Shown here piece after piece: positions 7,165 through 57,902 of a stretch of 64,000 bases of DNA; the first letter of the stretch is position 1; every line of letters begins with the position of its first letter. The translations under genes were made by a program, and so were the position numbers. The DNA lies in the NCBI GenBank assembly GCA_046563655.1, contig CM102286.1:11346001-11410000 (forward strand), in the 5' to 3' direction. This DNA comes from Yuukianura sp. NJ FZ-2021 (taxonomy: Eukaryota). The notes beneath the pieces were generated by a model. The model saw only the letters and a program-made list of their open reading frames with translations. It made no database searches and was not told the DNA's origin.

Positions 7165-8881
7165 TTTAGCACCGTCCTAAATTCAAAATTTGAAAATTTT
7201 GAATTTTAATTTTCGTTAAAAAATAAATGAGAAATAAAAACCACGAGGTTGGAAATGCTGTAATTTCTTCCAGGAATTAAGCTCAACTGGACACAAGGAC
7301 AAGTCACACAATTGCTATTTATGTAAAAGAAGAAAAATGCAGAATTTGAGACGTATATTACAGCTTATGGCATCATCTTCACTACCTTTTAAGTGAACAA
7401 TTTGGATTTGTAAGGTTGTTCTTGATGGGATGATGAGATAATTTCCATGCTATTTCTGCGCAAAAAAAGGTGCAATTCCTTTAGCAATTTTGCAAAGTCG
7501 ATACAAGTGACGTCTAAATCGTGATTCAGTGTTAGTATGTAAGTAATCAAGAGAAGGACTCGAAAGGTGTGTTTTATGAATTATGAGACTGCAAAACAAT
7601 TTGGATCCTGCTGGATGTTCCTGCTGAGGGTCATCCATGAAATTGGAAAGTGTGATTCATTGTTGCAAAACATGATTTCATTGTTGCAGATTATTAATAG
7701 CAATTCATCAGCATATTTGGTATAAAAAATTATACTAAAATGCAAAGTGATTAAAGTGAACCCTGAAATATGCTATCCAAAAAAAATGCTGAATTGAACT
7801 TCACCATTTTAGTTTTTTTTTACTGGAAAACTTTATAGCCATATACCATACTAATCGAATTAATTTGTGCGCCTTTGATGCCAAAGACTCTGTAATTTAT
7901 TATGCAGCACCATATCTTCTCGCTTACCGTGCTAATTTGAAGGCTTAATTAAATGCAAAGTGTTTTTTTTTATTCATTTTTTTTTTTGCTTCTAGGGTTT
8001 GCAATTTATATTATTAAACATACAGAGTATGTTGGTACACCTAACACCATGCATGTCACTTGCAGGTTAAGTTTGTAGCATTCATAGTAGTTTTGCGATT
8101 TTATATTAATTATTTTTTAGATTCAAGTTTGGAAAAAACTTCTGTTATGCTCCTGCCTTACTTCAGAAAGTCTCAAAGTTTTCATGAAATGTTTCGGCGA
8201 CGATGTCAGAATGTGACATACTGAATACGAGAAATTCTGAGGGAGGTGTAAGCCGGCTCAGTTTGTATAGTTCGTGTTCGATGACAAATTCAAATCTCCG
8301 CGACGGGGCTGGGATTTTGCTTGTGGTGACTGACTACTGTTGCCTAGCAGATAACTGTTCCAATGGCGAGTTGGATATTGCATAATGGCGCGAGGCCAGC
8401 AAACCACAGAAACAATTCAAAGCAAACAACTTTTTTCAAACCAGGAGTTATGGCATGACCTTGTTAAAAAAAAACATGCAAAATTTGGATTTAAACAACC
8501 TTGACTGAAGTAAAAAGAAATGTAAAAAAAAAAGATGGGAAAGTCACGTCATCATCATAGATCACCAAAAAGAGAGTTGAACCTAATTTCAGATAAAATA
8601 GTTGAAGATGATACTTGAAACTGATTTCGAAATCGAAGTGGGTTTTCTAATCAGCATTAGCATGAATTTTTCAGTTCACCTAGTTTTCTGAAGTGACAGA
8701 TTCTAGACCCAACCTAAAAATAAGCGAAGTTGAGAAGAACAAAATTCCTAGTCAGTTAACCAAAAGCTTTGCAGTCATCAACAAATTCATTTTCCTACTT
8801 GCTGTCAAGTTTGAAAAAAGAAAAGCGTAGGCCAAAGTTTAAAGTCATATTTAAATACCTAAGAAAATCCTGTAAGTTATT

Positions 8882-11800
8882 ATGGGTTCATCGAATGAAA
8901 ATCACTCAATGCTCTGGAAGATTTTCCAGGAAAATTCAAAAGTCTGGCCTTTAAAAGTGGCGGTGGAAGATGAGCTGCAGCAGCCATACACATACGCTAA
9001 AGTCAAAGAGTTAGCTGAATCGTTTTCTGCTTCGCTCAATCTCGGAGGGACTCGGAATCCTTTCGTAGTTTCACTCCTCCCTCCAGGAATCAAGTACTTC
9101 GTTACCTCCCTTGCTACAATTGCAGCTCACAAAATTGTCGTAGTTCTACACGACACTTACTTAAACACTCAAGTCGAAAAATGCTTGAAGACTCTCGACT
9201 ATCCGACAGTACTCACTACGCAGGAGAAGTGGGACAGCTTGGACATGGCATCTGGACATGACTATCCAAATCTTTATTTCATTACAGAAGATCTCCAATT
9301 GGAAGTTCCTCAAACTCGCATTACGCATGTTCCAAAACGTGAGATCACATCCTTCTAAAGAAAGGACTATTTTTTAAAATTATGTACTTACGATTAACTT
9401 TTCTTTAAATGTCAGATCAAGAATTCACTGTTGCAGAAATTGAAAACGAAGTTCCATTGGAAGGAGTCGGTTATTGCTTGTTCACTTCTGGCTCAACCGG
9501 TACTCCAAAAGCCGTGCTCGTCCGAGAGAGTTCGATTCTCAGTTCCGTCCAGGGTCTCATCGATACCGATCCGTCGGTATTTAATGACTCTATGCGAGGT
9601 CTTTTCGGTCTCTCAACTGGAGTCATCCTCTCCCTGACAGATATTTGGTCCGTGTTCAAAACCGGTGGGACGCTGATTATTCCTCCAAAGGATATCAAAT
9701 TTGACATTGACCGCTACAGATCCTGGCTTACGGCTAGAAGTATCACAGCAGCTACTTTACCATTGCCACTCATGGAGCTCCTTCTCGCAAAAAACGTGGA
9801 TAAAATGACTTCTCTCCGGTGGGTCATTTTTGGTGGCGCGAGAATCAATGCCAACAAAATTCGGATGGAAGGCGCTCATTTTACCGCCTACAATGCGTAT
9901 GGCTCTACAGAAATACTTGTTGCTACTTTACGACCAATTTCAAAAGAAAGTCCTATCACAACGAGTGTGGGGAAACCGATTGGAGGGGTTAAGATATACA
10001 TTGTGGATGACAAGGGTCAAGAGGTCACGAGCCCGGAGGTCACGGGTAACATCTACATAGCCGGCAATGGGTTAATGGCAGGTTACTATGGACAACCGGA
10101 ACTGAACTCCAAAGTTCTTATTCAAAACCCATTTGATTCCACCATGAGTCCAGTATTCAAGTCAGGCGATCGTGGTTACTGGTCCAATACTGGTGACCTC
10201 CATGTCTCGGGTCGAGCGGACGACCAAATCAAAGTACACGGGATTCGTCTTGAGTTGGGGGAAGTTGAGACTGCGCTGTGCAGTTTTCCTGGAGTGTCGC
10301 AAGCTGCAGTCGTTGCAGTTGACACGACTTCAGACGGCGGCAAACAAATTTTTGGATTTTGCACTCTCCGGAGTGGGCAAGAAAAGCCAAAGTCTTCCGC
10401 CGTGGAAAAATTTTTGCTTCAGAATCTTCAGCGGCACGCAATGCCTCGGCTTGTGACATTCCTTGATAAGATGCCAATAAACCCTGCTGGAAAAATTGAC
10501 CGAGTGAAACTAAGAGAAATGTCGGTGATAAGTTGTAATTCGGAAGAAAATGACAATGAACCGATGGGACCTGTTTTGAACCACTGGATTCAAGTTGTTC
10601 GTTCCGTTTGGGCCGAAGTTCTTCATCTCTCGGAAGATCAAATTCAAAGTGGCGACAACTTTTTCTACCTCGGTGGGAACTCCGTTTTGGTTTTCTCTGT
10701 AATGGACAAACTGAAGCAAGTTGAACCCAAAATTCAAGACAAAAATCCATTACTTCTGTTCAAATTTCCTGTTCTGAAAAACTTTGCTGGTGCACTTTCG
10801 GATGATGGAGTCGCCAACATTGAAATTGACTTTAACGCCGAAATAATCATGTAAAGGATCAAAACATCATATAATCCTATTAACGAAGTATAATATTTTT
10901 AAAATGTATGTTAAAGTATATTTTGAATTTCAGAGATTTTTTGCCAAAATCAGTTCCCTCGGCTATTCTAATAACAGGGACGACTGGATTCTTAGGACCA
11001 TTGCTACTTGCGGAAGCACTGAAACAGACCGAAAACGTTGAAATCTTTACAATAATTAGGGCTCGAACTGATGAAGATTCAAGGAAACGACTTCTTGCAA
11101 AGTACAGTGTGCATTTGCCTGGACTGGACCGTGTTCACTGTATAGCTGGGGATTTGACTAAGACTAAATTTGGTTTGAACGATATAACTTATAGTATGTT
11201 GCTGCACAAGGTCAAGGTCATTTTCCATTCTGCTGCGGAAGTCAGCTTCATGAAAACTTACAGCCAACTTCGAGAATCAACAGTCACCATGACCAAGAAT
11301 GTTCTCAAATTTGCAATGGAAGGTAAACTTCTAACCAACATTTCCTTTTTCTACAATTCAAAAGTATTTAATATAGTTTATTATATAATAAACACGTATT
11401 GTATCTATTTTAAATTGGTTGGAATCCAACCACAAGCTAATTCGTTGAATCCCGAAAAATAATGACAATGTTGTTGTGGTTCTCAGGCTACCCGAAGGAA
11501 CTTCACTACATGTCAACTATTGGTGTTTTTGACAGCGTTGAGGACTTGTCGTCTCCTGTTTATATCGCGGCGGAGGATCGAATCCCGAAAGGAGTAAATC
11601 CATCTAAAATGCTCAACGGCTACTTTCAGTCCAAGTGGGTTTCGGAACAACTCGTCTGGAGTGCCGTGGATCATGGCCTCGTCGCTTCCATATACAGAAT
11701 TGGCCAAATTGGAGCACATACAGTTACCAAAGATGTGGATTCGTCGGATGCCCTTGCCGGATTCTTAGTGATTTGTCAAACGATGAAAAAATTCCCTCTG

Positions 11801-12232: not shown

Positions 12233-13018
12233 ACTAGAAAAAACGTTTGAACGTTTAGACATGAAATTGTTCAACAGAAGTTCAGTAAAGCGCAAATTGG
12301 TTTGTACATTTTCGACTTACTGCAAATAGTAGGTAATGCCCAACTTTTGGAACAAAAATTTTCAGCAATTTAAGGATGCTTAATGAGAATTAATTCCTTA
12401 ATTGCTTAAAGAGTGACATTAAAAAAATTTGTTCGAAGGTCAATTGAGCTAACCTATACTGGATTTCGTCATATTCCAAAATAACCGTGTCAGAGCTGCT
12501 CCTGGTGGTGATAATGCCGCACTTCAGTATCAGTTTTACACCGATTGATTGGATTAGTGCTTGCATTAGATTTAATTAGTAGATTCCGGATAGTGACTCA
12601 TTGTTCCATTCCAGTAGAGGCGATTTGACAGTTTCAATTGTTGTGTTGCAAGTTACACCAAAATTAGTTACAACTTGTAACTAATATTCCTACTGGGTTG
12701 TTCGAATGTCATTTCAATTTTAACTTCATGGGTCAATAATAATTACGTACTCTAGCTTATCCTAAAGTTTTTGTATCAGAAGGAATTCTGCAGATTCCGA
12801 GAAAAATGGATATAACACAAACTATCAAATGCTTTTTCTCAAAATCAACAAAGCACAATAATGAAATTGAAACTAAGGAGAAAAACATTTTTTGTCCAAA
12901 TCAACTGAAAACTCCTTCGATTATACAACTATCACAAACTCATGATGAGGAATCCTAAGTTTTTATTGCGTTGTAATAAAAAAAAACTAATTACTTCGTC
13001 GAGGATAACTCAGCAATT

Positions 13019-16000
13019 TCAAAAACTCACATCCAAGTCGTCTGAACTAAACTCCTTTCCAACGGCTGAACGGACTCTACGATTTTTCGATCCAAACATT
13101 TTTCGACGCTGTAGAACGACATATCGGTTGTACTTTACATATTGCTGTGACAAAAATGGAATATAGAAAGCCCTGAAAAATGGATGCGACCTAGCAGAAC
13201 TAATGAAGTCTTGCTCCGAGATTATTTTCCATTCTTCCTTATTAGCTGCGTAATTTGGTTGATTAGGTGTAATTTGATCCTCGTCTATCGAATCCACTAG
13301 GAAGTCACACTCACTTAAGGGCACCTTGAGTCAGAATAGAAAAAAATGTACTAAAATAATACATAAATATAATAACTCTAGAGTTCTATTAATTGTTCAT
13401 TACATATCGTGTTGGTTCTTCTGTGTTAAGGTCGTTCATGTGATCTGGCAATCTCATGGTTCCTTTTGGATCAAATGCAGGATATAAATTAGGAAGTTGG
13501 CCCTTGAAGTCAGACTTGATGAAGCGAGTGTTCCATTTAGTGCTGGGTAGAAAAAAGGAAGAAGGGAAACGATACCACTCCTTTCCATAACAAAGCGTCA
13601 AATCCCTGTCGCCCACTTCAGTTTCAAATTTCTGAAGAGTTCCTTCCCGTTGTAAATTGAAAAACACATCAAAAGGTGCCCGGTACCCTGTTCAGACAAT
13701 CAAAAACTCCGATTATGAAATGAGGTTTTTATGGATCTTCCGTAATTTGTTGGGTTTTAGTTTGATAATTATGGAAAATCGCATGTTAAAGGAATTAGTA
13801 GTCTCTTCCAGCGTTAACAGACAAACATAAAGTTGTGTAACTCACCGTAATGTAATGCGACGATACGAGAACAACCAATCAAATTCGATGTGAAAATTAT
13901 GAGAAATCCAAGGCCACTGAGCCAAGTTTTCACGTCGCGAGCTTTCAACCATTTCCTGAAAGCTACCGGCGATATCGATGATGCATCCGCAACGAAATGG
14001 TATCCTCTTGTTAATATCCTCTGCATGGAATCAATTCCAATCGCCCCACATATAGGAATGAGTGGGAATATTGGGAACATAAATCGCTCTTCCTAGAATC
14101 ATAGCAATAGCAATATAATCCATGTTAACAAAAATGAAACCCACGCTTCATAAAACAACTTTTAGTATCTGAATAGTGAGTGTTCAATTTAGACAATTGT
14201 GCACAACTTTTACGTTTTACCTTATGAGGTTGAAGTATAAAAACAGTAAGCCAGACGAAGGTTGTTCCAATAATTAAGAATTTTTTCCTCAGAACGTAAT
14301 GGCTCTTCCAGCTAATCAACAGGAGTAAAGGAGAAGCGAGCGTCATAACAAACGCAATGTTAAAATTGAGAAAGCCGTTAATGATGTAGAATGTCCATGG
14401 CTCCGTTCCGTACAAATCGGGTCCCTTCGAAGACAGAACGTTGTACTTCACAATGTTCCAGGGCGCAATGACCAACTTGTTGTAGTGGGTCGAATCGATG
14501 TAAACTATTGGAATCTGAAAACAAAGGAAGGAGTAATTAACGACCCCAGCAAAACCTAAGCCATTTTGATTTAGCACTTGAACGAGGATTGAATTTGTAT
14601 TCCAATGTACAGGTTGCGATATTATCATAACATGTTTCATCTTTTCAACCAAAAAAATCAGACTGGATACGTTCCTCTCTCCATTTGTATAAAATTCCTT
14701 TGATCAAATTCAAGTTAGTTGTTGCGCGTTAATTTGTTTAATCCTATTGAATAATGGATCTTACTACAGTAGATAGCAAGTGAGGACAACGGGCCCATTT
14801 ATTTTTAGAACAGCCACGGGGGTTAGTCGGCCGCAATATTGGGGAGGGAAAAAACTCACAATGACAAAAAATGTCGTCAACAAAAAAGTCGACAACAAAA
14901 ATGTCGACAAAAAAAGATCGAAAACAAAAATGTCGACAAAAAATGTCGATAACAAAAAAGTCGACAACAAAAAACAAGTAGTGAAATTTTTGTATAGAAA
15001 ATTCTAACATTGACTCTAGCCTAGTGTCTAAGTGCTTGTAACTACTTCTCTACGGCCGCTGGTTCGAATACCAAACGGGTCAACGCTTGTGGTTAAGAAG
15101 TTACAAGTACTTAGATACAAGACTGGGGTCAATGTTATTATTTTTTTATTTATTTTTAGTTAAGGATTGAGTTCTTGGAAAAATATCTTTTCTCAAGAAA
15201 AACGTTTTTTCTTGAAAAGTTCTCAAAATAACATTTCTTTAGAAAAAAACGTTTTTGAAAAATTTCAAAATAGCATTTCAAACGTTGTCCAAGTAGTACT
15301 TAAACAGCGAGTTTTGAGACTAGCAATCATCAGTTCTGAAACCAGTCTCAATCCGCAATCATGACCATGGAGGGGTTTAGACCGTATATGGAAGTTTTAA
15401 CACCATTTAGCGACATGGAAGATGTCATCGCCATCAAGATTGCTGGACACTCAATTCTGCTAGCAGCTGAGGAGCTGCCGACCGTCGTTGAAAAGCTAGT
15501 TAAAGCATACATTGAAGCTGGGAGAATGATGAAGGATCTTCCACACTTTGAAAGAATCATGGCAAGGAACCGCAAGAATGGATTTCTGAAGTTATTCCGC
15601 GTTCTAGATCAACCACCAGCCTCGGAAATTCAAATAATGAAAGAAAAGCTTGATACACCTCTTCTTCCAATCCACTGCATTAAAAACGAGTCGGACCAAG
15701 TGTTTCTTATTCGAAGCGGTGGTCCTCTCACAGTGAACATTAGTGACATTCCTCTTCTGGTGGAGTCGCTTCTAAAGTGTGGCTGCTTTCCAACTTCTTA
15801 TCCGGAACGGAATCTAGACGAGCTTATTCATGAAACAAAACGTGAATTCCTGGAAAAGCTGCGCAAGGAAGGTCTCAACACTTGTGTCAACAAAATTAAG
15901 AAAATGATTGGAAAGCTCGCAGGAACAAAACCAGAAGACAAGAAAATGCATCCATACAAAAGCGAAAATCGTTTCAAAAGCATGTTTCGACAACGCAACT

Positions 16001-19000
16001 GCTGCTGTCCAACAATCGATGATACAATAATGCCGCGTTATAGAAAGCACATAGCGGACGTTACAAAGGACCAACAGGAGAGAATTAACAAACCAAGGAT
16101 TGTATCAGAAGGAGATTTTGGGGACAGACAACTCCAAAACCTCGAAACTTATCGATTAGCGCCATATTCTGCTAAAGTCAAGAGCATGATTATTCACCAT
16201 GGTGTACATGATCATTCCGCTTACGATATTTTCTGTTAACTGAATTTCTGTATAGTTTAGTATGACACTTTTACATTTGAATAAAATCCAGGATTTTAAA
16301 TTTTTTGTTACATTGGGAAACTATTTATTGAACTATTGTAAATTTAAACAAAACTTAAACACAAATTAATAAATCAATGTTGTATAAAACCAAATTATTG
16401 TTGTGCTCAAATTTATTTTCAATTGGGCGGAGGCTTCCACTCTTCCAGAAAAGTGTTATCCACACTAGACTCGCTCTCATTTTCATCTTCTTCTTCACCA
16501 TCACTCAAACTGGGAGTTTCTTCTTCTTCTTCGCTAGTGCTGGAATCCTCCACAATAAGGCTCGCTTCTGTTGGAAAAGGTATCCCCCAATATTTTAAAA
16601 GATGGCTACAGAGTACAAAGTATTCAAGCTGAAACGCTTGAACACCTCATGGCTACAGCGCTGGATTTATCCAGCCCAGTCCTGGGGAAGTCTTTGAGCC
16701 GTGTGAGCCAGCCCTTGGACGCCAGCCCTCGGACGCCAGCCCTCAATTCGCATGAATTTTTAACGTAATATAACAACTTCACTGCATAATACAATGGCCT
16801 CTATACATAATACAATGGCGTCTCTGCATAATACAATGGCCTCTCTGCATAATACAATGGCCTCTCTCCATAATACAATGGCCTCTCTGTATAATACAAT
16901 GGCCTTTCTGTATAATACAATGGCCTCTCTGTATAATACAATGGTCTCTCTGCATAATACAATGGCCTCTCTGCATATTACCATGGCCCAGTTGTATAAT
17001 ACAATAACCTCACTGCATAATACAACATTTTTTGTCAATTTTACATCCAACCACCACCACCACCACCACAACCCCAACGTGCCCACCCATGCAAAAGTAT
17101 AAATAGCGACGTTGGCTTGCTCATCTCTCAGTTTCATTTCAGACGTTGAGCTGTGAAGACGTGAAGATTCTGTTTACTATACATCATGGATACCAGTACA
17201 GCGTGCGATATTTGCTGCAGACAATTCTCACGAAGGGACGCATTGAGACGACACAAGTTAACTTGTCATAGTAGCGTCGCAGTATCGAAAATGCTTCAGG
17301 TATGCATGAATCAGCGGGAAAAATCTACTATGTTTCGACATGTACACTCTGGGAAAAAGTTTGACCCGCATTTGGTTGCACCGTTTACTATGTGCATCAG
17401 TGGAATGACTCAGAGCGGCAAAAGCACCCTTGTAAAGCAAATACTTCTACGACGAAACGAAATTGTCGAGACAAATATTGACAAGCCCTTGGAACGTATC
17501 ATGTATTGTTACACTGAGTTCCAGCCTACGCTGTTTGGAGAATTGAAGACCAAGATTCCAACTATACAATTTCATCGTGGACTTCCTGAAAAATGGCATG
17601 ACGGAACCGACAAGCCGTCAGTCGTCGTCCTTGACGATTTGATGCATGAAGCAGGCAAAAACGGAGAAGTTGGAGCTGCGTTCACAAGGACTTCGCATCA
17701 CCGCAACGTATCACTCATCATTCTTGTGCAAAACTTTTTTCACAGGAATATGAAAGAAATCACGTCAAACTGTCACTACATTGCTCTAATGAAGAATCCG
17801 CGAGACTCTCAATTTGTAGCTTGTCTTGGACGTCAAATGAATGGAGGAAAGAAGAATACAACCATGGAAGAAGCCTACAAGGAATGCATGTTAAAGCAAT
17901 ATGGATATCTATTCATCGATTTAACTCAACGACAAAATGATTTGTTTCGCATTAGAGATAATATATTTCCTGAAAATTGTCGAATCTATGCTAATGAATG
18001 AATGAATAAACACATTACACGATAAAAGTTCTATTTTCAAGTTTTTTATTTTGAAAATTCGGAATCTAACGAATGTACAGTCATAAAGGTGTATAATTCT
18101 ACGAAATTACGCTAGTGAGAAACTCTCCAAGTATTGGTAATGCGACAGCGAGAAGAGCTGGCAGGAACCCACCGTGCTGTATAAGTAGTTTTTTCTTGTC
18201 TTCAATCGATCCTTTAGCTTCTGCAACACGTTTAATCTTATATCGATGCGGTCTCAAGATATTTTTGACGGTGGCCTCAATAGGAATCTTGCCCTGGATT
18301 ACGTCCTGAACACATTTGTGTAACGCAAGAATTTGACCAGGAGACGCTGTGGAGAGAAGTGTCTCGCGTATAATAGGGGAGTGTTGGTTCATCTGGTGGA
18401 GAAATTGATAATGTCGTATGGGACCTGGTGATGGTTTAGCTCCTCCAGTTTGTCTATACTCTTCTTCCCCTTCTTCATCCCTTTCGTCTTCCTCGTTTTC
18501 CTCCTCTTCTTCTACTTCTTCTTCCCCTTCTTCATCCCCCTCGTCTTCCTCGTCATCTTCTTCTTCTTCATTTTCTACATCACTTTCCACGTGCGGGCGA
18601 TTTCTAGAAAGCTTTTTGGGTTCATCTCGACCGAGCAAGCCTCGGTGGCTGATCGGAAGCAGATATTTTGGAATGCCTGTCTGAATCATAAAGTCTACGA
18701 TGACAGGAATCATTTGTCTTGTCAACTTATATCTTCCATCCGCAAGTTTTCGTATTCCCTCCTCGAACTCGCTCCTGGGTATGTTGGCATCACCCAGACT
18801 AACGCTATTGTTCGCAAAGGTTGCTCCATTTGCTACAAAAAATTGTGCTAGCTGTTTTCCAACAGCTGAAAACTGGTCCAGAGTAAACGGTGGAGTTGTC
18901 GGTGCTGCTGTCGGAGTTTCATCTTTCGCTATTTGCGATTCTTTTTTAATTCTCTTGGAAAATGGCATCTCGAGCGCTTCATTCGGCTTTACCACAGTAT

Positions 19001-22000
19001 TTGACCAACCATTCGTTGGATTTTCTGACCAGGTCGTAATTCGGTCATATCTGTCTTCGGTTTTTCTGGCTGACTTTTCCGGTCCACCATCCCATCCGGT
19101 AAAGTGACTTGTAGCCATATCATTCAACCGCCTATCGTTTACAACGTTCACATTGACGTAGCCTTCCCTTTGCTTCCGTTGATTTTCCCAGTTCTGGCGT
19201 AATTCCGTTTGCATCATATGATTCTGAAGTTCGATTGGAATGTTGTTCCCAGAATCTCGCGAATTACGCTCATGAAGCTCCATTGGTCCACGGCTCTGAG
19301 ACATGTTCATTGTATGTTGCTGTAAGTATTGTACGGGTTTAGTATCAAGCAAAAAACCATCATGGATTTGCTTTTCTCCAAAATAACTTTTGCAAGGGCT
19401 GTTTTGCTGAGACTCATATGTCTCAAGCTGATCCAGGAGACTGTTGTAGTCGTCTTGGTGAACAAGAATGTATTTTTGCGCCATGACTGTTAGCCTAACC
19501 GCTCCAGATGGTAAAATCTTCACGTCTTCACAGCTCAACGTCTGAAATGAAACTGAGAGATGAGCAAGCCAACGTCGCTATTTATACTTTTGCATGGGTG
19601 GGCACGTTGGGGTTGTGGTGGTGGTGGTGGTGGTTGGATGTAAAATTGACAAAAAATGTTGTATTATGCAGTGAGGTTATTGTATTATACAACTGGGCCA
19701 TGGTAATATGCAGAGAGGCCATTGTATTATGCAGAGAGACCATTGTATTATACAGAGAGGCCATTGTATTATACAGAAAGGCCATTGTATTATACAGAGA
19801 GGCCATTGTATTATGGAGAGAGGCCATTGTATTATGCAGAGAGGCCATTGTATTATGCAGAGACGCCATTGTATTATGTATAGAGGCCATTGTATTATGC
19901 AGTGAAGTTGTTATATTACGTTAAAAATTCATGCGAATTGAGGGCTGGCGTCCGAGGGCTGGCGTCCAAGGGCTGGCTCACACGGCTCAAAGACTTCCCC
20001 AGGACTGGGCTGGATAAATCCAGCGCTGTAGCCATGAGGTGTTCAAGCGTTTCAGCTTGAATACTTTGTACTCTGTAGCCATCTTTTAAAATATTGGGGG
20101 ATACCTTTTCCAACAGAAGCGAGCCTTATTGTGGAGGATTCCAGCACTAGCGAAGAAGAAGAAGAAACTCCCAGTTTGAGTGATGGTGAAGAAGAAGATG
20201 AAAATGAGAGCGAGTCTAGTGTGGATAACACTTTTCTGGAAGAGTGGAAGCCTCCGCCCAATTGAAAATAAATTTGAGCACAACAATAATTTGGTTTTAT
20301 ACAACATTGATTTATTAATTTGTGTTTAAGTTTTGTTTAAATTTACAATAGTTCAATAAATAGTTTCCCAATGTAACAAAAAATTTAAAATCCTGGATTT
20401 TATTCAAATGTAAAAGTGTCATACTAAACTATACAGAAATTCAGTTAACAGAAAATATCGTAAGCGGAATGATCATGTACACCATGGTGAATAATCATGC
20501 TCTTGACTTTAGCAGAATATGGCGCTAATCGATAAGTTTCGAGGTTTTGGAGTTGTCTGTCCCCAAAATCTCCTTCTGATACAATCCTTGGTTTGTTAAT
20601 TCTCTCCTGTTGGTCCTTTGTAACGTCCGCTATGTGCTTTCTATAACGCGGCATTATTGTATCATCGATTGTTGGACAGCAGCAGTTGCGTTGTCGAAAC
20701 ATGCTTTTGAAACGATTTTCGCTTTTGTATGGATGCATTTTCTTGTCTTCTGGTTTTGTTCCTGCGAGCTTTCCAATCATTTTCTTAATTTTGTTGACAC
20801 AAGTGTTGAGACCTTCCTTGCGCAGCTTTTCCAGGAATTCACGTTTTGTTTCATGAATAAGCTCGTCTAGATTCCGTTCCGGATAAGAAGTTGGAAAGCA
20901 GCCACACTTTAGAAGCGACTCCACCAGAAGAGGAATGTCACTAATGTTCACTGTGAGAGGACCACCGCTTCGAATAAGAAACACTTGGTCCGACTCGTTT
21001 TTAATGCAGTGGATTGGAAGAAGAGGTGTATCAAGCTTTTCTTTCATTATTTGAATTTCCGAGGCTGGTGGTTGATCTAGAACGCGGAATAACTTCAGAA
21101 ATCCATTCTTGCGGTTCCTTGCCATGATTCTTTCAAAGTGTGGAAGATCCTTCATCATTCTCCCAGCTTCAATGTATGCTTTAACTAGCTTTTCAACGAC
21201 GGTCGGCAGCTCCTCAGCTGCTAGCAGAATTGAGTGTCCAGCAATCTTGATGGCGATGACATCTTCCATGTCGCTAAATGGTGTTAAAACTTCCATATAC
21301 GGTCTAAACCCCTCCATGGTCATGATTGCGGATTGAGACTGGTTTCAGAACTGATGATTGCTAGTCTCAAAACTCGCTGTTTAAGTACTACTTGGACAAC
21401 GTTTGAAATGCTATTTTGAAATTTTTCAAAAACGTTTTTTTCTAAAGAAATGTTATTTTGAGAACTTTTCAAGAAAAAACGTTTTTCTTGAGAAAAGATA
21501 TTTTTCCAAGAACTCAATCCTTAACTAAAAATAAATAAAAAAATAATAACATTGACCCCAGTCTTGTATCTAAGTACTTGTAACTTCTTAACCACAAGCG
21601 TTGACCCGTTTGGTATTCGAACCAGCGGCCGTAGAGAAGTAGTTACAAGCACTTAGACACTAGGCTAGAGTCAATGTTAGAATTTTCTATACAAAAATTT
21701 CACTACTTGTTTTTTGTTGTCGACTTTTTTGTTATCGACATTTTTTGTCGACATTTTTGTTTTCGATCTTTTTTTGTCGACATTTTTGTTGTCGACTTTT
21801 TTGTTGACGACATTTTTTGTCATTGTGAGTTTTTTCCCTCCCCAATATTGCGGCCGACTAACCCCCGTGGCTGTTCTAAAAATAAATGGGCCCGTTGTCC
21901 TCACTTGCTATCTACTACTACCCACCTGACAAAGCATTTTGTTCGCGAGATTCGAACAGTTTTGCTTCAAAGAAGCAATGAAACAAATTGTCATTATTAA

Positions 22001-23130
22001 CTTAAACTTACACGTTGCTTATTTTAGATTCTTACCAAAACAACGGCGAGTGAAATCATGCTCCAAGTAAGAAACATTCTTACTTTCCGCTGAACAATCA
22101 CGATATCCAGTGCAATTAACAATCTTGATAACAAAAATGAGTTTTTAATAAAAATCAAACATTCATACGTGATTCGTGCATCCACAAAATGTCAGTTATA
22201 AACTTACCCTGTTAGGGCTGCAAAAGGCCAACTTAATAGCGCGGAAACTGCAACAGTGAAGATAGACAGGTGATACGACTTGTCTATCCAAGCTCCTATC
22301 GCTAATGCTGTCATGTACCTGCGCAAGATGGGATAAAATTAAAATATTTCTAACTTCGATTGTTTAATTTCTGTAAAAAGTTTCCGTACGATGAAAAGGA
22401 CGATGGCAAAAGTGCAGAACTTGATATAAACATCCCGGGAGCGAAGAGTGACGTTACAAGTGCGATTCGGCATATGTTTCCTCCGAAATATTTTCGAATT
22501 GACCTATGCAGTTCGTACAATAAAACTTGTGGCATTATTTAATCTATGACTCAATCATAATGGAGGAAACAAACTATCTGATATTCATACCTGTAGAGGA
22601 ATACTTCGCTGCATGCCGATATAAACCCCAAGAAACATCGGACAAGAAAAAATACAAGAAGCGGGTTTGGCTTAAAAATATAGTCGTAGATTTTTGCGGG
22701 CACGGTATGAAACAGGAGATAAGTGTAGGAACGAAGCGCAAATTCCGGTGAATACTCCCATGTTTGAAATCCTTTACCATACAACAGAAAGTGAACCTGC
22801 AAAGAAGCCAATAAAATCATTAAGAACTGCTTTCAAGTTAAATCGCAGCAAAACATTTTGTGAAAAAAAAGACAGGCTCACAGGTTCCCAATAGTTAAAC
22901 GTTTCATCACAGTCTGAAATTGTAGTCCACAATGCGGCAGCAAATCGAGCAGAGACTAGTAACTTAAATGCAGCGTAAGGGGATGGCGACCAGCTATCTT
23001 CCCCTTCATCCACCGTTTTCAGGTTGGATACTTTTGGTACGCTTTTTGCTTTCCTAGCGGAACTGGTATCATTCTTCAGGCTAGACGTCCTCTCACTACT
23101 ACTTAGGAAAGAAATTTCATCTAGTTCCAT
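13019..23130 (-). CDS. ALG9: Alpha-1,2-mannosyltransferase ALG9 (multi-exon; one intron carries the 7.1-kb element; start approximate)
   Basis: ISDCDETFNYWEP, FQTWEYSPEFALRSY, PHKEERF, CYGKEWYRFPSSFFLP, FKGQLP. Exons ...SLAVVL (~22036) and IPIVYIDS... (~14515) join across the element. Confidence 0.93.
14862..14976 (+). repeat. Subterminal ~15-bp tandem repeat (AAAAATGTCGACAAC-like), mirrored at ~21708-21822
   Basis: Repeated GTCGAC-type palindromic cores separated by A-runs. Confidence 0.8.
15005..15147 (+). ncRNA. Putative Pol III tRNA-like/hairpin RNA in the TIR (second copy ~21537-21679, minus strand)
   Basis: A-box-like TAGCCTAGTG at 15017-15026, B-box-like GGTTCGAATACC at 15061-15072, 7-bp stem TTGACTC/GGGTCAA, ~40-bp fold-back arm, T7 run at 15141-15147. 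Confidence 0.5.
15361..16239 (+). CDS. Element-encoded 292-aa protein of unknown function (left TIR copy)
   Basis: Intronless ORF, TCAGTT initiator-like motif ~30 nt upstream, AATAAA at ~16280. Confidence 0.75.
   Translation: MTMEGFRPYMEVLTPFSDMEDVIAIKIAGHSILLAAEELPTVVEKLVKAYIEAGRMMKDLPHFERIMARNRKNGFLKLFRVLDQPPASEIQIMKEKLDTPLLPIHCIKNESDQVFLIRSGGPLTVNISDIPLLVESLLKCGCFPTSYPERNLDELIHETKREFLEKLRKEGLNTCVNKIKKMIGKLAGTKPEDKKMHPYKSENRFKSMFRQRNCCCPTIDDTIMPRYRKHIADVTKDQQERINKPRIVSEGDFGDRQLQNLETYRLAPYSAKVKSMIIHHGVHDHSAYDIFC
16782..17026 (+). repeat. 21-bp minisatellite (CATAATACAATGGCCTCTCTG), ~11 copies, mirrored at ~19658-19902
   Basis: Directly visible; produces 7-aa repeat ORFs in several frames. 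Confidence 0.95.
17098..17133 (+). promoter_or_regulatory. TATA box + initiator core promoter at the inner end of the TIR (mirror 19551-19586, minus strand)
   Basis: TATAAATA at 17098-17105 and TCAGTT at 17128-17133, canonical ~30-nt arthropod spacing, upstream of the ATG at 17186. Confidence 0.7.
17186..18001 (+). CDS. Polinton/A32-like (FtsK-HerA superfamily) DNA packaging ATPase with N-terminal C2H2 zinc finger
   Basis: CDICCRQFSRRDALRRHKLTCH; Walker A ISGMTQSGKST; Walker B VVVLDDLM; FTRTSHHRNVSLIILVQNFF; KNPRD; YGYLFIDL; AATAAA at 18005-18010. Confidence 0.9.
   Translation: MDTSTACDICCRQFSRRDALRRHKLTCHSSVAVSKMLQVCMNQREKSTMFRHVHSGKKFDPHLVAPFTMCISGMTQSGKSTLVKQILLRRNEIVETNIDKPLERIMYCYTEFQPTLFGELKTKIPTIQFHRGLPEKWHDGTDKPSVVVLDDLMHEAGKNGEVGAAFTRTSHHRNVSLIILVQNFFHRNMKEITSNCHYIALMKNPRDSQFVACLGRQMNGGKKNTTMEEAYKECMLKQYGYLFIDLTQRQNDLFRIRDNIFPENCRIYANE
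18099..19484 (-). CDS. Polinton-type putative virion core/membrane-active protein (~461 aa from ATG 19484) with acidic linker and C-terminal GGFLPALL amphipathic tail
   Basis: Intact ORF; C-terminus KKKLLIQHGGFLPALLAVALPILGEFL resembles the adenovirus pX tail and Polinton small ORFs; AATAAA on the minus strand at 18045-18050. Confidence 0.75.
   Translation of the reverse strand: MAQKYILVHQDDYNSLLDQLETYESQQNSPCKSYFGEKQIHDGFLLDTKPVQYLQQHTMNMSQSRGPMELHERNSRDSGNNIPIELQNHMMQTELRQNWENQRKQREGYVNVNVVNDRRLNDMATSHFTGWDGGPEKSARKTEDRYDRITTWSENPTNGWSNTVVKPNEALEMPFSKRIKKESQIAKDETPTAAPTTPPFTLDQFSAVGKQLAQFFVANGATFANNSVSLGDANIPRSEFEEGIRKLADGRYKLTRQMIPVIVDFMIQTGIPKYLLPISHRGLLGRDEPKKLSRNRPHVESDVENEEEEDDEEDEGDEEGEEEVEEEEENEEDERDEEGEEEYRQTGGAKPSPGPIRHYQFLHQMNQHSPIIRETLLSTASPGQILALHKCVQDVIQGKIPIEATVKNILRPHRYKIKRVAEAKGSIEDKKKLLIQHGGFLPALLAVALPILGEFLTSVIS
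19515..21916 (-). repeat. Right terminal inverted repeat (2402 bp)
   Basis: Mirror of 14768-17169. Confidence 0.95.
20445..21323 (-). CDS. Element-encoded 292-aa protein (identical right TIR copy)
   Basis: Translation identical to 15361-16239. Confidence 0.75.
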   Translation of the reverse strand: MTMEGFRPYMEVLTPFSDMEDVIAIKIAGHSILLAAEELPTVVEKLVKAYIEAGRMMKDLPHFERIMARNRKNGFLKLFRVLDQPPASEIQIMKEKLDTPLLPIHCIKNESDQVFLIRSGGPLTVNISDIPLLVESLLKCGCFPTSYPERNLDELIHETKREFLEKLRKEGLNTCVNKIKKMIGKLAGTKPEDKKMHPYKSENRFKSMFRQRNCCCPTIDDTIMPRYRKHIADVTKDQQERINKPRIVSEGDFGDRQLQNLETYRLAPYSAKVKSMIIHHGVHDHSAYDIFC

Positions 23131-24009
23131 GAGCTGTTGGGGCGTTCGTTTTGGTGCATACTGAGTTTTCTGCCCTTGATTTCTGGTAAACACAGAACCA
23201 ATACGTGACTATTAATTCAAATACATGCAAGAACTTCAACTATTGCAAATCATAATTGATGTACCTAATTACCTAATTAGGCACATCAATTACCTAATTA
23301 GTATTACCTAAATTTAATATTGCCTTTCGCTCGATTGTTACCCATTGTCAGACTCAGAAACAATACCCAAAAGTACTGTTTAAAAACAGCGAAAACTGAC
23401 GCGCCCAACAGCTGGTGCTGGTAGAACTACCTCACTTTCGTTCAAATCAAAATACTGTCTGAGAAATCCAACAATTGGTGGGACCTTTTGATCGGATTAC
23501 TAATTAGTGCTATTCTACCTAATCCTCAGATAAAACATTGATGAAAACATTTCGCAAAATGTATACACTAATACTCGAAATTCTTCTGAAAGTTCGGCAC
23601 TGGATAAAAGCGTTATAAAGAATTAATACAGGGAAAGCATATTAGAATTACAAAACGGGTCAACGGTCAAGCATTTTCTTGCTTTTTCTACCATTTACAA
23701 ATTTAACTTTAAACATACGTTAATCAATCACAAAGTAAATGCATGTTCCATTAGCGAAAGAAAACTTTGGATCAGCTCCGAAATCCCATTACGAAAAGGA
23801 AGTCTGCGAAATCAGAGGATTCGCGTACTTTACTGTCTGTCAGCGGATTAGCATAGCCCAAATTTGATTGTTTTCATAACATTTCAATTCAACGGAGGAC
23901 CATTCACCGCAGGTTTTTACCGTATTAGCCGCTACCGCACTACTTTTTTTTAATTGTTGCTTTGTGAATTTAAGTGTAGTTTTTCAGTTCATGCCGAAGA
24001 CCTCCAATC

Positions 24010-45996: not shown

Positions 45997-47071
45997 CACC
46001 TCAATTATCTCAGAAACTACTGGACGGATTTGATTCCGGTTTTCTCCTATCAACACCTCATGACCCCAACCTGGTCACTATTGAATATTATCCCCGTGGG
46101 GCAACTCCTTCCAGGTCAAAGGTCAAGGTCACCCGGTTCGATCCCCGGTAACCCGGAAAACGACCTCTACAAAAGTTGTTCATCTCGTCGAGACTAACAA
46201 CTTTTGTTTATATCACATGACCCCAAGTGACCTGCTTCCGGGTCAAAGGTCAACTTTTTTCATATTAACGTCCTCCTAGGTGGGATGCGGGGAGGAGCGC
46301 ACCCCACAGCGCCGGGTGACCCACCATCACACCCACGGGTGAGCCCAAGGTGGGTAAACAATAATTAAAGCTACATCAGGTTGTCCAGTAACTGGAACTT
46401 TTAAAATTTGTTTGAACAAAAAATTTTGACTTTCCATGGTAATTTTTTGCATGTGATGCAAATGGGATTGGTGCAGAATTGGTGCAGAAATTTGTTTGGA
46501 GTAAGATTTTTGGAAACCATGAGGAACTGGATAACCTCTTGTAGATTAATTGCAAATTGGTTGCTATAGCAACCTTGGGTGAGCCACACACACACCCGGG
46601 GAAACCTTCCCACATACCGGGGAAACCACGCCCCTCCCCGGGGAACCCACTCCCTCTCCCCCGGGGAACCCGCGCCCCTCCCCGGGGAACCCACTCCCTC
46701 TCCCCCGGGGAACCCACCCTCTCTCCCCCGGGGAACCCACTCCCTTTCCCCCGGGGAACCCACCCTCTCTTTCCCGGGGAACCCACCCCCTCTCCACCGG
46801 GGAACCCACCCCCTTTCTCTCGGGGAACGCACCCCTGCCTCTCCGGGGGTGAAGGGAAGGGGGCGAGAAAATCGGGGGAACCCACCCCCACGCTCCCTGG
46901 GGTGCGGAGCGAAAAAGTGGGGGGCACCCACCCCCACTTCTCCGGGGGGGGGCGGAAAAGTGGGGGGAACCCAGCCCCGCTCCCACTGGGGTAACTCCAC
47001 ATTCCTCACCTGGGGGAAACCGTCTTTTGGCTTGAGCTATTTCGTTATGCGCGGTTTACAACCGGTTTATT
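45915..47071 (+). mobile_element. DINE-1/Helentron-associated (HINE)-like element; second 3' end at ~54205-54289
   Basis: 5' hairpin TTATTAAATAGC-GAAA-GCTATTTAATAA, (TGTC)n microsatellite, ATCTCAGAAACTACTGGACGGATTTG core, 3' hairpin CGGTTTACAACCG followed by a T-rich end. Confidence 0.7.
46595..46990 (+). repeat. GC-rich ~21-bp tandem repeat (CCCCGGGGAACCCACTCCCTCT-like)
   Basis: Directly visible; source of the spurious Gly/Pro-rich ORFs. Confidence 0.9.
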
Positions 47072-47298
47072 GGTTATTCAGATATATAAGAATTAGTGTG
47101 GGTCTTAATAATATATGTAATTTGGAATTGGTTTTAAAATTTTGAATTGGCTACTGATATACTCAAAACTTCCACTTAAATTTCTAGCCTTTTGATAATT
47201 ACTTCATTTGTAGGTCCATGGGCGAATCCAGCGTTTGAGTCAAAATTATAAATTGAACATAAAGTTTTGAGTTACAATTTTATTCAATGTGGCAAGAC

Positions 47299-55746: not shown

Positions 55747-57902
55747 TTATTGTTGATCAAAGATATTCTTTAAGGCGTTTATAAAATTGACAGAAAATGC
55801 TTCTTCTGAGAATCGATCCAGTGAATCACGTGCTCGTGACTGAATTTTACGTTTTTCATTAGGCGACATTTGGATGATTTGATGTAAGATTTCGGCGTAT
55901 TCCTCTTGCTTCGTGGCAAGAAATCCTGTCCTGGACTCTTCTAGAGTCTCGACGATGTCCATCATCGGTCCGCCAGATTTATGAGCTACCATGATTAGTC
56001 CTGCCGCCATACACTCAACGATCCCTGTGAAACAAATCAAAACGTTAACTATACGTTTACATCCATAACTCGAAAACAATGTGTTCTATTATGAAGAACG
56101 AGTCGAATGTCCAAATTAGTTTAATTAAACTCACCAATTCCGAAATGTTCATTCCACATTGTGTGAATCCCAATCAACCCTTTGCTCATTTCGGATTTTA
56201 GATCCTCAAAGGAAAGATTGAGTTTGAATTCCACGTTATTATCCAGTTGCATTTGAGTTGACATATAACGGAGGTGTGCCACACGACATTTATCTTCAAT
56301 GTTTCTGCAACTCCCAATCAATACAAGTCGAACTTTATCCCACACTTCTGGCTCTACAAGTTTCCGCAGTTCAGTCAATGCCTTCAACTGCAAAAGATGA
56401 TCCTTTTCTGGACGAAATTGAGCGACGGACACAACTTTGATAAGGGAGTCGTCCCTGTTGGAGTCTAGTGGAATCTTCATGAATTGTTCAACATCACATG
56501 GAGGAAACACTTTGTATGTTTTAGAAGGACGATGCCATAAGGCATTGATGTGGCTCTGTGTCCAACTCGAGTTCACCATAACCGCATCGCTGTATTGCCC
56601 GGCCATGGAATACACCCAAGCAAACAGACGATAGTACACGATCTTTAGTGTGGTGAGTAATCTGCTTCGAGCGACCATGAAGTTGTTGTTGTGAGATTCA
56701 ATTCCGCCGGACACGCGTTCAAGCATGTCTGTACTAATGGTTGGGTAGTGTACATATGCAGCGACCTTACATTGTCCAATACGATTGAAGATCGGAAAAG
56801 TGAAGGCATATCCCATAGTGTCGATATAAATATCTAAACAAAAAAGGTAATTATTTGTATTTCGTAAGAACACAGTGCTTTTTTCGCATAAAAAATTAAC
56901 AGATAAAGTTCTAGTAACGTGATGCATGCGATATTTGTGTACTTACCAGGAACAAAATTCGACAGTGCCTCCAACCCTAAGATAAGGGATCCCAAGCTTT
57001 GACAAAGAAGGGTTAGATGTGGATAGTGATGTGCCTCAACCCAACTGCGCTGTTTTAGAAATATGAACTCCACACTGTTCGCCGGAATGTGAATGTTGAA
57101 CCGCGAAGCGACATTGCCTAAGATGGTATCAGATGTAGCGTCGATATCTCCAGTGTAAACCACGTACCGATACCCTGGAAATCTAAATATCCGAATGGTC
57201 AAATTGTAGCTTTGAGCGGCGGTCGAGCCGGTTGTTGGGTTGAAGTAAACTTTGAGGTCCTCCGTTGTACCCCCCAAATTGCATTGTATTGTACCCCCAC
57301 ATTATAATCCGTGGCGGCAAATTCAAAAAAGCAACAAATCGCCCCCTCTATTGTTGGTTAGGTTAGGTTAGGTTAACATAACCTAAGGACGGGGGGTACA
57401 GTTCATAAATCTATGCGCAACTGAACAAATCAACAGTAGAGGGGGCGATTTGTTGTTTTTTTGAATTTGCCGCCACGGATTAAAATGTGGGGGTACAATA
57501 CAATGAAATTTGGGGGGTACAACGGAGGACCTCAAAGTTTACTTCGACCGGTTGATGAAATTATTCATTTGACAGTGAAACCAAAAATGATTTACCTACT
57601 CTGTAAAGTCCTTATTCCACACCAGAGTACACGTTCTCCACCTCCACCAGCGTTGCAATATGGATGAAAGAATGCAACTGAAGTTCGAGGATCTTTTTCC
57701 TTCTGACGACTCTTCCTTCGCTTTGAATTCTGCCAAAAATTTAGCGTTAGATAGCAAAATCACCCATGAAACAATACGAGTAGTTGTGATTCCTACGTAC
57801 AAAGTATTTTTTAACCAGTAGCGTGCCAAGTATAGTCCCAACAATTATTGGTATCCATAATATTAGATAAACCCACAAATTGCTCCCTTCAGAGGACTTC
57901 AT
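55747..57902 (-). CDS. ALG11: Alpha-1,2-mannosyltransferase ALG11
   Basis: [58 protein letters not shown]. Confidence 0.95.
57238..57549. mobile_element. 312-bp MITE (GGTTGAAG family) in an ALG11 intron
   Basis: ~115-bp TIRs; flanks GGTTGTTG / GGTTGATG; internal TTAGG tract. Confidence 0.9.

Follow-up and report, generated by a model that had tools for sequence, protein, structure and literature searches.

A likely non-autonomous Polinton derivative with long, gene-bearing inverted repeats in an Alg9-like gene of Yuukianura

Introduction

Polintons (also called Mavericks) are thought to be viruses as well as transposons, and their life cycle is largely untested. A 64,000-nucleotide stretch of the Yuukianura sp. 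NJ FZ-2021 genome (contig CM102286.1, positions 11,346,001 to 11,410,000, forward strand; hereafter the window) raises the question of what such an element can be reduced to. A 7149-bp insertion at window positions 14768-21916, two-thirds of it inverted repeat, interrupts an Alg9-like host gene and carries a packaging ATPase gene. We consider it likely that this insertion represents a recent, non-autonomous derivative of an adintovirus-type Polinton/Maverick, whose two virion genes may either serve its spread or be hold-overs. A small and apparently young derivative that has kept just a packaging ATPase and a pX-like core protein, with the same promoter before each, would provide a compact handle on the cis sequences sufficient for replication, integration and packaging, on whether two ATPase-adjacent proteins (A and B below) act with the packaging motor, and on whether Polintons have helper-dependent parasites. 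Even as a mere defective copy, it would show to what length terminal inverted repeats (TIRs) can grow and that a promoter can be shared through them.

Structure of the insertion

A repeat search identified two arms separated by 2345 nt. The left arm (14768-17169, +, 2402 nt) begins AGTAG and is 100% complementary to the right arm (19515-21916, -), which terminates in CTACT; by direct string comparison the two are exactly identical, and the inward repeat ends at 17169/19515. The first letters of the element are AGTAGATAGC and its last letters GCTATCTACT, and it is flanked by CTTACTAC on the left and ACTACCCACC on the right. Comparison of the flanks revealed a target-site duplication, with ACTAC at 14763-14767 and again at 21917-21921. 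Taken with perfect TIRs, the duplication measures 5 bp; giving the final T of the element to the target extends it to 6 bp (TACTAC, from 14762). Because clean AG..CT ends are accompanied by a duplication on both sides, the 7-kb unit itself integrated and did not decay in place. No further pieces of the element were found in the remainder of the window.

The insertion sits between exons, because segments of the Pfam Glyco_transf_22 (GT22) profile map to both sides of it. Profile positions 2-39, 33-100 and 94-139 lie on the minus strand at 22774-23208, 22551-22832 and 22350-22538, giving exons at 22350-23208 (-; profile 2-139) upstream of the insertion in gene sense, and positions 210-311 lie in an exon of the same Alg9-like mannosyltransferase at 14125-14703 (-), downstream. 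Two short frames within 22024-22338, candidates for profile positions 139-210, had no match at E<=0.001. Together these results bear out what a first, sequence-only reading of the stretch had described: a 7149-bp insertion in an ALG9 intron, apparently identical 2402-bp inverted repeats, AGTAG...CTACT ends with the ACTAC/TACTAC ambiguity, and insertion as one unit.

Perfect palindromic arms of 2.4 kb are an error that assemblers and some long-read libraries are known to produce, and that reading had itself named an artefactual second arm as one result that would overturn it. Five public DNA runs, with no RNA run among them, contain the stretch as contigs; four derive from a single organism A sample and the fifth from organism B, in an independent study. 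Our contig comparison covered the left flank, one arm and the centre in runs X1-X4, X4 being the independent study. The joint 17169 -> 19514, on opposite strands, is present in all four of these runs, with shorter sides of 30, 51, 30 and 189 nt (189 in the independent study; the 30-nt sides are unitig overlaps only). Because the joint recurs in every run compared, the independent study included, the inner end of the arm does follow directly on the centre in inverted copy. The junction in two studies, the resumption of the host gene on either side and the 5-6-bp duplication make an assembly error, whether fold-back or duplication, very improbable. Two other joints with low sides, 13092>15607 and 15282>18032 (sides 23 and 21), were disregarded.

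The packaging ATPase and its relatives

The gene at 17186-18001 (+) encodes a packaging ATPase of 271 aa that joins an N-terminal C2H2 zinc finger (residues 6-30) to an A32/FtsK-HerA-type ATPase. It matches Pfam PF04665 (Pox_A32) at E 8.9e-06, with 25.8 bits against a cutoff of 22.8, and its Walker A (G73, G78, K79) and Walker B (D150, D151) residues are intact and fall among the invariant columns of the alignment, confirming that a packaging ATPase is retained; the match to the C2H2 finger is weak. A large protein collection contained 74 homologues, the best at 74% identity and some annotated as A32 plus zinc finger. No relative was found in a viral contig collection, either by the single protein or by the alignment.

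Metagenome contigs scanned with the ATPase alignment yielded 80 loci, denoted here by L-numbers. Among the 16 scanned loci of at least 5.5 kb, 13 have rve and/or DNA_pol_B_2 near the ATPase. The rve integrase domain is present in 11 of the 16, as well as in the shorter L003 and L008, and L018 has pPolB; five more loci of at least 5.5 kb were left unscanned, one a duplicate of L031 and the others without a further open reading frame (ORF) of at least 220 aa. L023 has a weak match to Peptidase_C5 (adenovirus protease; E 0.0014, under the curated cutoff). A frequent order on one strand, exemplified by L031, is pPolB, ATPase, module B (described below) and integrase. In a quick tree, supported by the Shimodaira-Hasegawa-like approximate likelihood ratio test (SH-aLRT) only, the window ATPase forms a five-row clade with L001, L002, L016 and L003 (SH-aLRT 99), and an integrase gene adjoins the ATPase in L003. 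Based on these comparisons the element is plainly Polinton/Maverick-derived, as its ATPase clusters with metagenomic ATPases that lie beside pPolB, rve integrase and adenain-like genes.

Compared with L001, L002, L003 and L014, the ATPase gives pS values of 0.76-0.91, which are saturated, and pN values of 0.20-0.31. The dN/dS check proposed in the sequence-only reading, run on these relatives, shows old purifying selection on the lineage and is uninformative about the mini-element itself: because dS to the nearest relatives is saturated, no selection test applies to its own history.

Neighbours of the ATPase in other loci include an inhibitor-of-apoptosis-type gene (BIR plus RING) that adjoins it at 8631-9476 (-) in L021, an rve-bearing Polinton-like locus. 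In L018 (788-1546) and L019 (4382-5248) a PI-PLC-X phospholipase-C-type protein is encoded directly downstream of the ATPase, in the usual slot of the pX-like gene; like the adintovirus PLA2X, it may be a further accessory protein that acts on membranes.

Missing genes and dependence on a helper

A Pfam scan of five ORFs of the element detected no pPolB, rve integrase, adenain-type protease or capsid domain, and Pfam found no helicase domain in the element. The pPolB genes of relatives were readily found by the same scan. Polinton hallmark genes were not found elsewhere in the 64-kb window, and ORF292 and ORF461, the two other genes of the element, gave no capsid signal with Pfam, PDB sequences or phmmer. 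The lack of integrase, pPolB, protease and capsids that had been read from the letters alone therefore holds by sequence, including the searches with ORF292 reported below. Because no polymerase, integrase, protease or capsid gene is detected in this way, we regard the element as non-autonomous and in need of functions in trans. The presence of pPolB and integrase defines a Polinton (PMC5499653). To judge from its genes, the element fails this definition yet derives from a Polinton, and must work as a helper-dependent unit.

ORF461, a fusion of two ATPase-adjacent proteins of relatives

ORF461 (18099-19484, -) is a fusion of a protein that we call A to a basic module that we call B. Residues 1-295 (18600-19484, -) form a complete A protein, of unknown family, which aligns over its full length with the A proteins of L001, L002, L021 and L003. 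An acidic linker (residues 296-344) leads to QTGG (345-348), the basic B module (349-439; 15 K+R versus 6 D+E), which ends in QHGG (436-439), and a hydrophobic tail (440-461). In L001 (144-1724, 527 aa) and L002 (790-2313, 508 aa), the two closest intact relatives, the ATPase continues in frame from its C-terminus into the A protein, and this natural fusion hints that the two may act together. The homology was found by local searches in the fetched loci. Searching whole ORF461 against a word-indexed protein database returned 8000 candidates, none significant, as the acidic tract swamps the search; residues 185-295 returned 130 candidates from the same database, again none significant.

The B family, to which residues 349-461 belong, has 51 domain matches across the 80 loci and in relatives is usually a protein of 110-140 residues. 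Its gene mostly lies directly downstream of the ATPase on the same strand, and in L027, L046, L060 and L080 it lies upstream and divergent. Members of the family share a basic stretch, an invariant Q, a G-G and then a hydrophobic FLPxLL tail. Adeno_PX (PF05829) is matched by 5 of the 26 aligned members (best E 7.7e-05), and the module of the window aligns throughout with these, including the invariant Q and the G-G. A module-B profile had no match among PDB sequences.

A cleavage-type motif, (M/I/L/N/Q)-x-(G/A)-G, occurs within the last 45 residues in 23 of the 26 members, and ORF461 has exactly two such motifs, QTGG ahead of module B and QHGG ahead of the tail. This arrangement resembles the precursor of adenovirus mu (pX), in which a basic middle part lies between two protease sites and is followed by a further C-terminal fragment; in pMu, two sites for the adenovirus protease (AVP) give rise to three fragments (PMC7998265). 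Unlike in adenovirus, P4 is Q in ORF461, and the module, at ~90 residues, is much bigger than mu and joined to a second protein. The adenovirus examples MRGG and IVGL|G have M/I/L at P4, and QRGF|G is called non-consensus (PMC4246237).

Copies of ORF461 in the public runs vary. In X1 and X4, and hence in both organisms, there is an in-frame 12-nt insertion in the acidic tract, at window position 18504. At 18204, about a quarter of the X2 depth has 4 extra nt, which would put module B out of frame; some members of the family are thus broken.

Contents of the arms and a shared promoter

From the outside inwards, each arm consists of the terminus, a 15-bp array, a hairpin, ORF292, a 21-bp array, an ACC run, and a TATA box with an initiator (Inr). 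The subterminal array (14867-14973, mirrored at 21711-21817) comprises 7.3 copies of the AT-rich 15-bp unit AAAAATGTCGACAAC, 100-206 nt from the end, and its repeats are candidate sites for integrase, replication or packaging proteins. The hairpin (15005-15140, mirrored at 21544-21679) is long and imperfect, spanning ~135 nt, with a DNA fold of -30.2 kcal/mol and a z of -7.5 that none of 200 shuffles equalled. An Rfam scan of the element gave two sub-threshold matches only, the one to the hairpin far below threshold, and a tRNA scan gave none. The depth bin that covers the hairpin (15018-15242) exceeds the bins further inward, so the hairpin may represent a small palindromic repeat of its own within the arm.

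ORF292 reads inward and is present once per arm (15361-16239, +; 20445-21323, -). It is an orphan: there is no Pfam match, no relative among 1.84 billion representatives, no match to PDB sequences and no tblastn match in the 80 loci, and it is unlike the ORFs upstream of the ATPase in L014 and L008. Its open frame of 299 codons was never reached in 2000 shuffles (maximum 210), its codon-position GC content follows the same GC1>GC3>GC2 pattern as the other two genes of the element, and its codon usage correlates with theirs and with that of host exons. Based on these three properties ORF292 looks coding; AATAAA follows it, and ATCAGTT lies 26 nt ahead of its ATG. Contigs of other copies leave the window sequence at 15351, 10 nt before this ATG, and at 16389-16582, and because copies diverge at these points we suggest a variable ORF292 cassette set between two shared modules, that of the terminus and that of the promoter. 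An X4 contig, from organism B, jumps back by 473 within the ORF292 region (window 15413-15885; depth 88.5, side 133); there the arm cassette is locally duplicated or rearranged.

The inner part of the arm contains 11.6 copies of a 21-bp tandem repeat, CTGCATAATACAATGGCCTCT (16782-17025, mirrored at 19659-19902), a candidate enhancer upstream of a core promoter. At the inner end of the left arm this promoter (17098-17133, +) consists of TATAAATA at 17098-17105 and a TCAGTT initiator at 17128-17133, and the second TATA+Inr copy, at the inner end of the right arm (19551-19586, -), faces ORF461. The arm stops 36 nt past the initiator, and the start codons lie inside the unique centre, that of the ATPase 17 nt in and that of ORF461 30 nt in. 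Because the repeat ends ~36 nt past the initiator, we predict that one promoter copy, that of the left arm, drives the ATPase and that the other drives ORF461. Repeats, a TATA box and an initiator are also found upstream of the ATPase in the four closest zinc-finger relatives, and because they share this layout, the inner end of the arm appears to be the native ATPase promoter. The two genes converge on a 97-bp spacer with a polyadenylation signal for each strand (18005-18050), namely AATAAA at 18005-18010 for the ATPase and TTTATT at 18045-18050, a minus-strand AATAAA, for ORF461. These positions and the ORF list agree with the description of intact ORFs with promoter and polyadenylation signals in the sequence-only reading. 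The promoter shared by both arms is the most distinctive feature of the element and was absent from that reading; what is new here is that identical TATA+Inr copies end both arms and, as predicted from their placement, drive both central genes.

Copies in public reads

Summed contig depth, which is a different quantity from copy number, was high over the element in both organisms. In X1, flank contigs are at 95-210, centre contigs at 1920-2148 and the terminal bin at 12324; in X3, the flank contig is at 47.5, centre contigs at 171-206 and the terminal bin at 1375; in X4, flank contigs are at 4.4-7.3, centre contigs at 113-118 and the terminal bin at 118. The terminal bin of X2 is at 13218, and overall this bin stands at 6-60 times the flank depth. 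Every module of the element is thus repeated in both organisms, the termini most. In both organisms, contigs agree over roughly the outermost 85-90 nt and part from one another beyond that (loose ends at 14852/14858), the pattern that other elements with identical ends would produce.

Termini that are common to more sequence than the centre, together with the presence of only part of the morphogenesis module, would also suit a genome segment of a multipartite Polinton, whose replication and capsid genes would reside on sister segments with the same ends, all needed together. In all related loci long enough to judge, however, a single molecule bears the ATPase, the pX-like gene and pPolB and/or integrase, and the same data fit the ordinary relationship of a helper and a defective element. 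A multipartite Polinton is not mentioned in the Polinton literature cited here, in which no search was aimed at the term. We give this explanation hardly any credence.

A 32-kb contig of X3 matches the left flank at ~95% up to 14730 and then continues for 17.4 kb without a match to arm or centre. Judged from the left flank, it is a probable empty allele on a diverged haplotype.

Interpretation and origin

We propose that the element kept the cis elements of its family, namely AG..CT termini, seven 15-bp subterminal repeats per end and a 5-6-bp target duplication, and only two genes of virion morphogenesis, the zinc-finger A32-type ATPase and ORF461 (A plus a pX/mu-like B). Its arms would be long because each holds ORF292, the 21-bp array and the native ATPase promoter. 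Replication and integration would be done in trans by full-size relatives that share the termini, and ORF461 would be a small polyprotein cut by the adenain-type protease of the helper. Perfect identity of the arms could reflect a very recent insertion, copying of one end from the other during protein-primed replication, or both. The maintenance that was read from the tidy architecture does not follow, since in an insertion as young as this one looks, intact ORFs carry no information on selection. With respect to the interpretation given in the sequence-only reading, insertion as a unit, the packaging ATPase and dependence in trans stand, and the virion-type protein stands in part. Module B belongs to a family with Adeno_PX matches.

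Several observations weigh against this account, beyond the distance between contig depth and copy number. The ORF292 part of the arms is at or under centre depth (1250-2200 versus ~2000 in X1) and not at double. Since double depth is not reached, many elements with this centre must carry other arms, and these elements may be full-size. Since other copies depart from the window sequence at the two arm positions given above, centre depth may come largely from elements with different arms. In the contig comparison, which did not extend to the source genome, neither a second complete 7-kb copy nor a helper with matching termini was seen. Of the mobile multi-copy family first envisaged, depth shows the repetition of each module and not that of whole mini-elements. 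The match of the X3 contig stops 37 nt before the insertion point, and the comparison stretch had the left flank only, so the check for an empty ALG9 allele speaks for one from that side alone.

These depth data leave room for a one-off rearranged copy, in which the 7-kb structure would exist at this locus only and all depth would come from full-size relatives with a promoter-ATPase-ORF461-promoter cassette. The unseen second copy, the shallower ORF292 region and the divergence of other copies at 15351 and 16389-16582 would fit. Against this, the clean ends and the duplication on both sides indicate that the 7-kb unit itself integrated, and exact-match contigs of the ORF292 region reach several times the single-haplotype flank depth in X1 (664 versus 95-105). 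We find a one-off copy quite improbable.

Other points against our account concern the proteins. The window's own module B matches no Pfam family at E<=1 by itself, so the earlier label of a virion-type protein is carried by the family and not by this copy alone. Two cleavage-type motifs are reached in 4478 of 20000 shuffles of ORF461; we therefore rejected the motif count as a statistic, and only the positions of the motifs are suggestive. As the count is not significant and Q at P4 is non-consensus, cleavage by a helper protease can only be conjectured. Capsid proteins are often missed by sequence searches, and for that reason a cryptic structural role of ORF292 or ORF461 is possible.

Finally, the gene order is unlike that of every relative seen. 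In most relatives, A follows B or is fused to the ATPase; in the window, module B lies downstream of the ATPase and convergent to it, within the fused A-B gene. Because the order differs from all relatives seen, the origin needs more than one rearrangement, and because pPolB and integrase canonically flank the ATPase-B pair, a single internal deletion cannot yield the element. It could have arisen by the copying of one end onto the other during replication, for which adenovirus subgenomic DNAs are a precedent. Another route would start from a parent that already had 2.4-kb arms with a promoter at each inner end and lost its middle, and here the precedent is the ~2-kb gene-bearing TIRs of butterfly polintons (10.1101/2025.02.07.637071).

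A selected role for the two virion genes would make the element an adapted satellite, a helper-dependent parasite of a full-size Polinton/adintovirus that brings its own packaging ATPase and core/pX polyprotein and whose cognate repeats favour its packaging in helper capsids. The two kept genes, both from the packaging/core section of the morphogenesis module, are intact, and a full promoter copy stands before each; a recent insertion, however, has intact genes whatever their use. The seven AT-rich subterminal repeats, ~100-200 nt from the end in both arms, recall the seven AT-rich A-repeats at 220-400 bp that are bound by the adenovirus ATPase IVa2 (PMC5033970). The window ATPase has a C2H2 finger of the DNA-binding type, but relatives whose context is full-size or unknown have it too. 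Measured against the window, organism B differs by ~1% in the centre (14 and 11 differences in 1156 and 1178 nt) and by ~3.4% in the flanks, a pattern that recent spread explains equally well.

A distant ATPase clade likewise includes short, TIR-bounded elements with a retained ATPase. L047 (~3.9 kb) and L080 (at least 4.2 kb) have inverted repeats of ~270 and ~640 nt around a zinc-finger A32-type ATPase, with no polymerase or integrase between the repeats, and L080 also has a module-B fragment. Unlike the window element, they have arms that are ~87% alike, and their ATPases are at 31-33% identity; no dual-promoter layout was seen in them, where none was looked for. Both are decayed, the ATPase of L080 being frameshifted and that of L047 a C-terminally short ORF of 232 aa. 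Because these loci were found through ATPase homology, they do not show preferential retention of the ATPase, and ATPase-keeping mini-elements are what such ascertainment returns. The data consist of assembled contigs of DNA runs; encapsidated or extrachromosomal status is conjecture, and we judge an adapted satellite doubtful. That an animal genome hosts a true satellite, a 7-kb mini-genome with a sequence-specific zinc-finger motor, duplicated promoters and matching repeats at each end, competing for the capsids, polymerase, integrase and protease of its helper, is correspondingly a tentative and rather unlikely proposition; if true, the satellite would be a eukaryotic, integrating counterpart of capsid-hijacking phage satellites.

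Comparison with known systems

On our preferred reading as a non-autonomous derivative, the closest comparison is with Polintons/Mavericks themselves (polintoviruses, and adintoviruses in animals). Like these, the element has AG..CT termini, TIRs, a short target duplication, an A32-type ATPase and a neighbouring pX-like accessory protein. The target duplication of Polintons is 6 bp (PMC3014272), and accessory proteins of adintoviruses have pX-like C-terminal domains, as described by Starrett et al. (PMC8502044). Unlike Polintons, which are ~15-25 kb long, the element measures 7.1 kb and consists largely of its repeat; it is without pPolB, integrase or a detected protease or capsid, and its A and B are fused and convergent to the ATPase.

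The contrast drawn in the sequence-only reading, that Polinton TIRs are usually below 1 kb, is outdated. According to a recent preprint, butterflies have polintons with ~2-kb gene-bearing TIRs, giving two gene copies per insertion, as well as polymorphic insertions and polB-less derivatives (10.1101/2025.02.07.637071). These resemble the window element in such respects. In contrast to it, they are at least 12 kb long and keep hexon, penton and integrase, and their TIR genes are core genes (hexon, adenain) where those of the window are orphans (10.1101/2025.02.07.637071). In the literature searched, polymorphic polB-less variants and 2-kb TIRs appeared only in this insect preprint (10.1101/2025.02.07.637071), and the phrase 'non-autonomous polinton' occurred once, meaning Tlr1.

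Transpovirons are likewise linear DNAs of ~7 kb with TIRs, which arose from Polinton-like viruses through the loss of genes and need another virus (PMC5499653). They keep a Tlr1-like SF1 helicase/inactivated pDNAP gene and have lost the morphogenesis module (PMC5499653), whereas the window element shows the reverse, with some morphogenesis genes retained and none for replication. Their hosts are giant viruses of protists, and the window element resides in an animal genome.

The subgenomic DNA of adenovirus incomplete particles is helper-dependent, and both of its ends are long inverted copies of the packaging-signal end with origin and packaging repeats. Such DNAs arise and vanish within infections, and we know of none that is an integrated, transposing unit. 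Unlike them, the window element sits in the genome between the copies of a target duplication, and its loop bears two genes that look expressed.

The host gene and its surroundings

The right-arm copy of ORF292 (20445-21323) and ORF461 (18099-19484) are on the minus strand, the sense orientation of the Alg9-like host gene, and the element thereby brings host-sense polyadenylation signals into the intron. Host transcripts might be cut short as a result, which would agree with an insertion that is apparently confined to one haplotype.

Elsewhere in the window, open frames of 149-211 codons occupy five of the six frames over the same ~700 nt at 46376-47145, which suggests low-complexity or repeat sequence; the minus-strand frame at 46376-47005, the only one of these that was scanned, had no Pfam match. 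An ALG11-like gene (56121-57301) lies on the same strand as the Alg9-like gene (14125-23208), ~33 kb apart. Both would encode mannosyltransferases of N-glycan synthesis, and their closeness is probably a coincidence.

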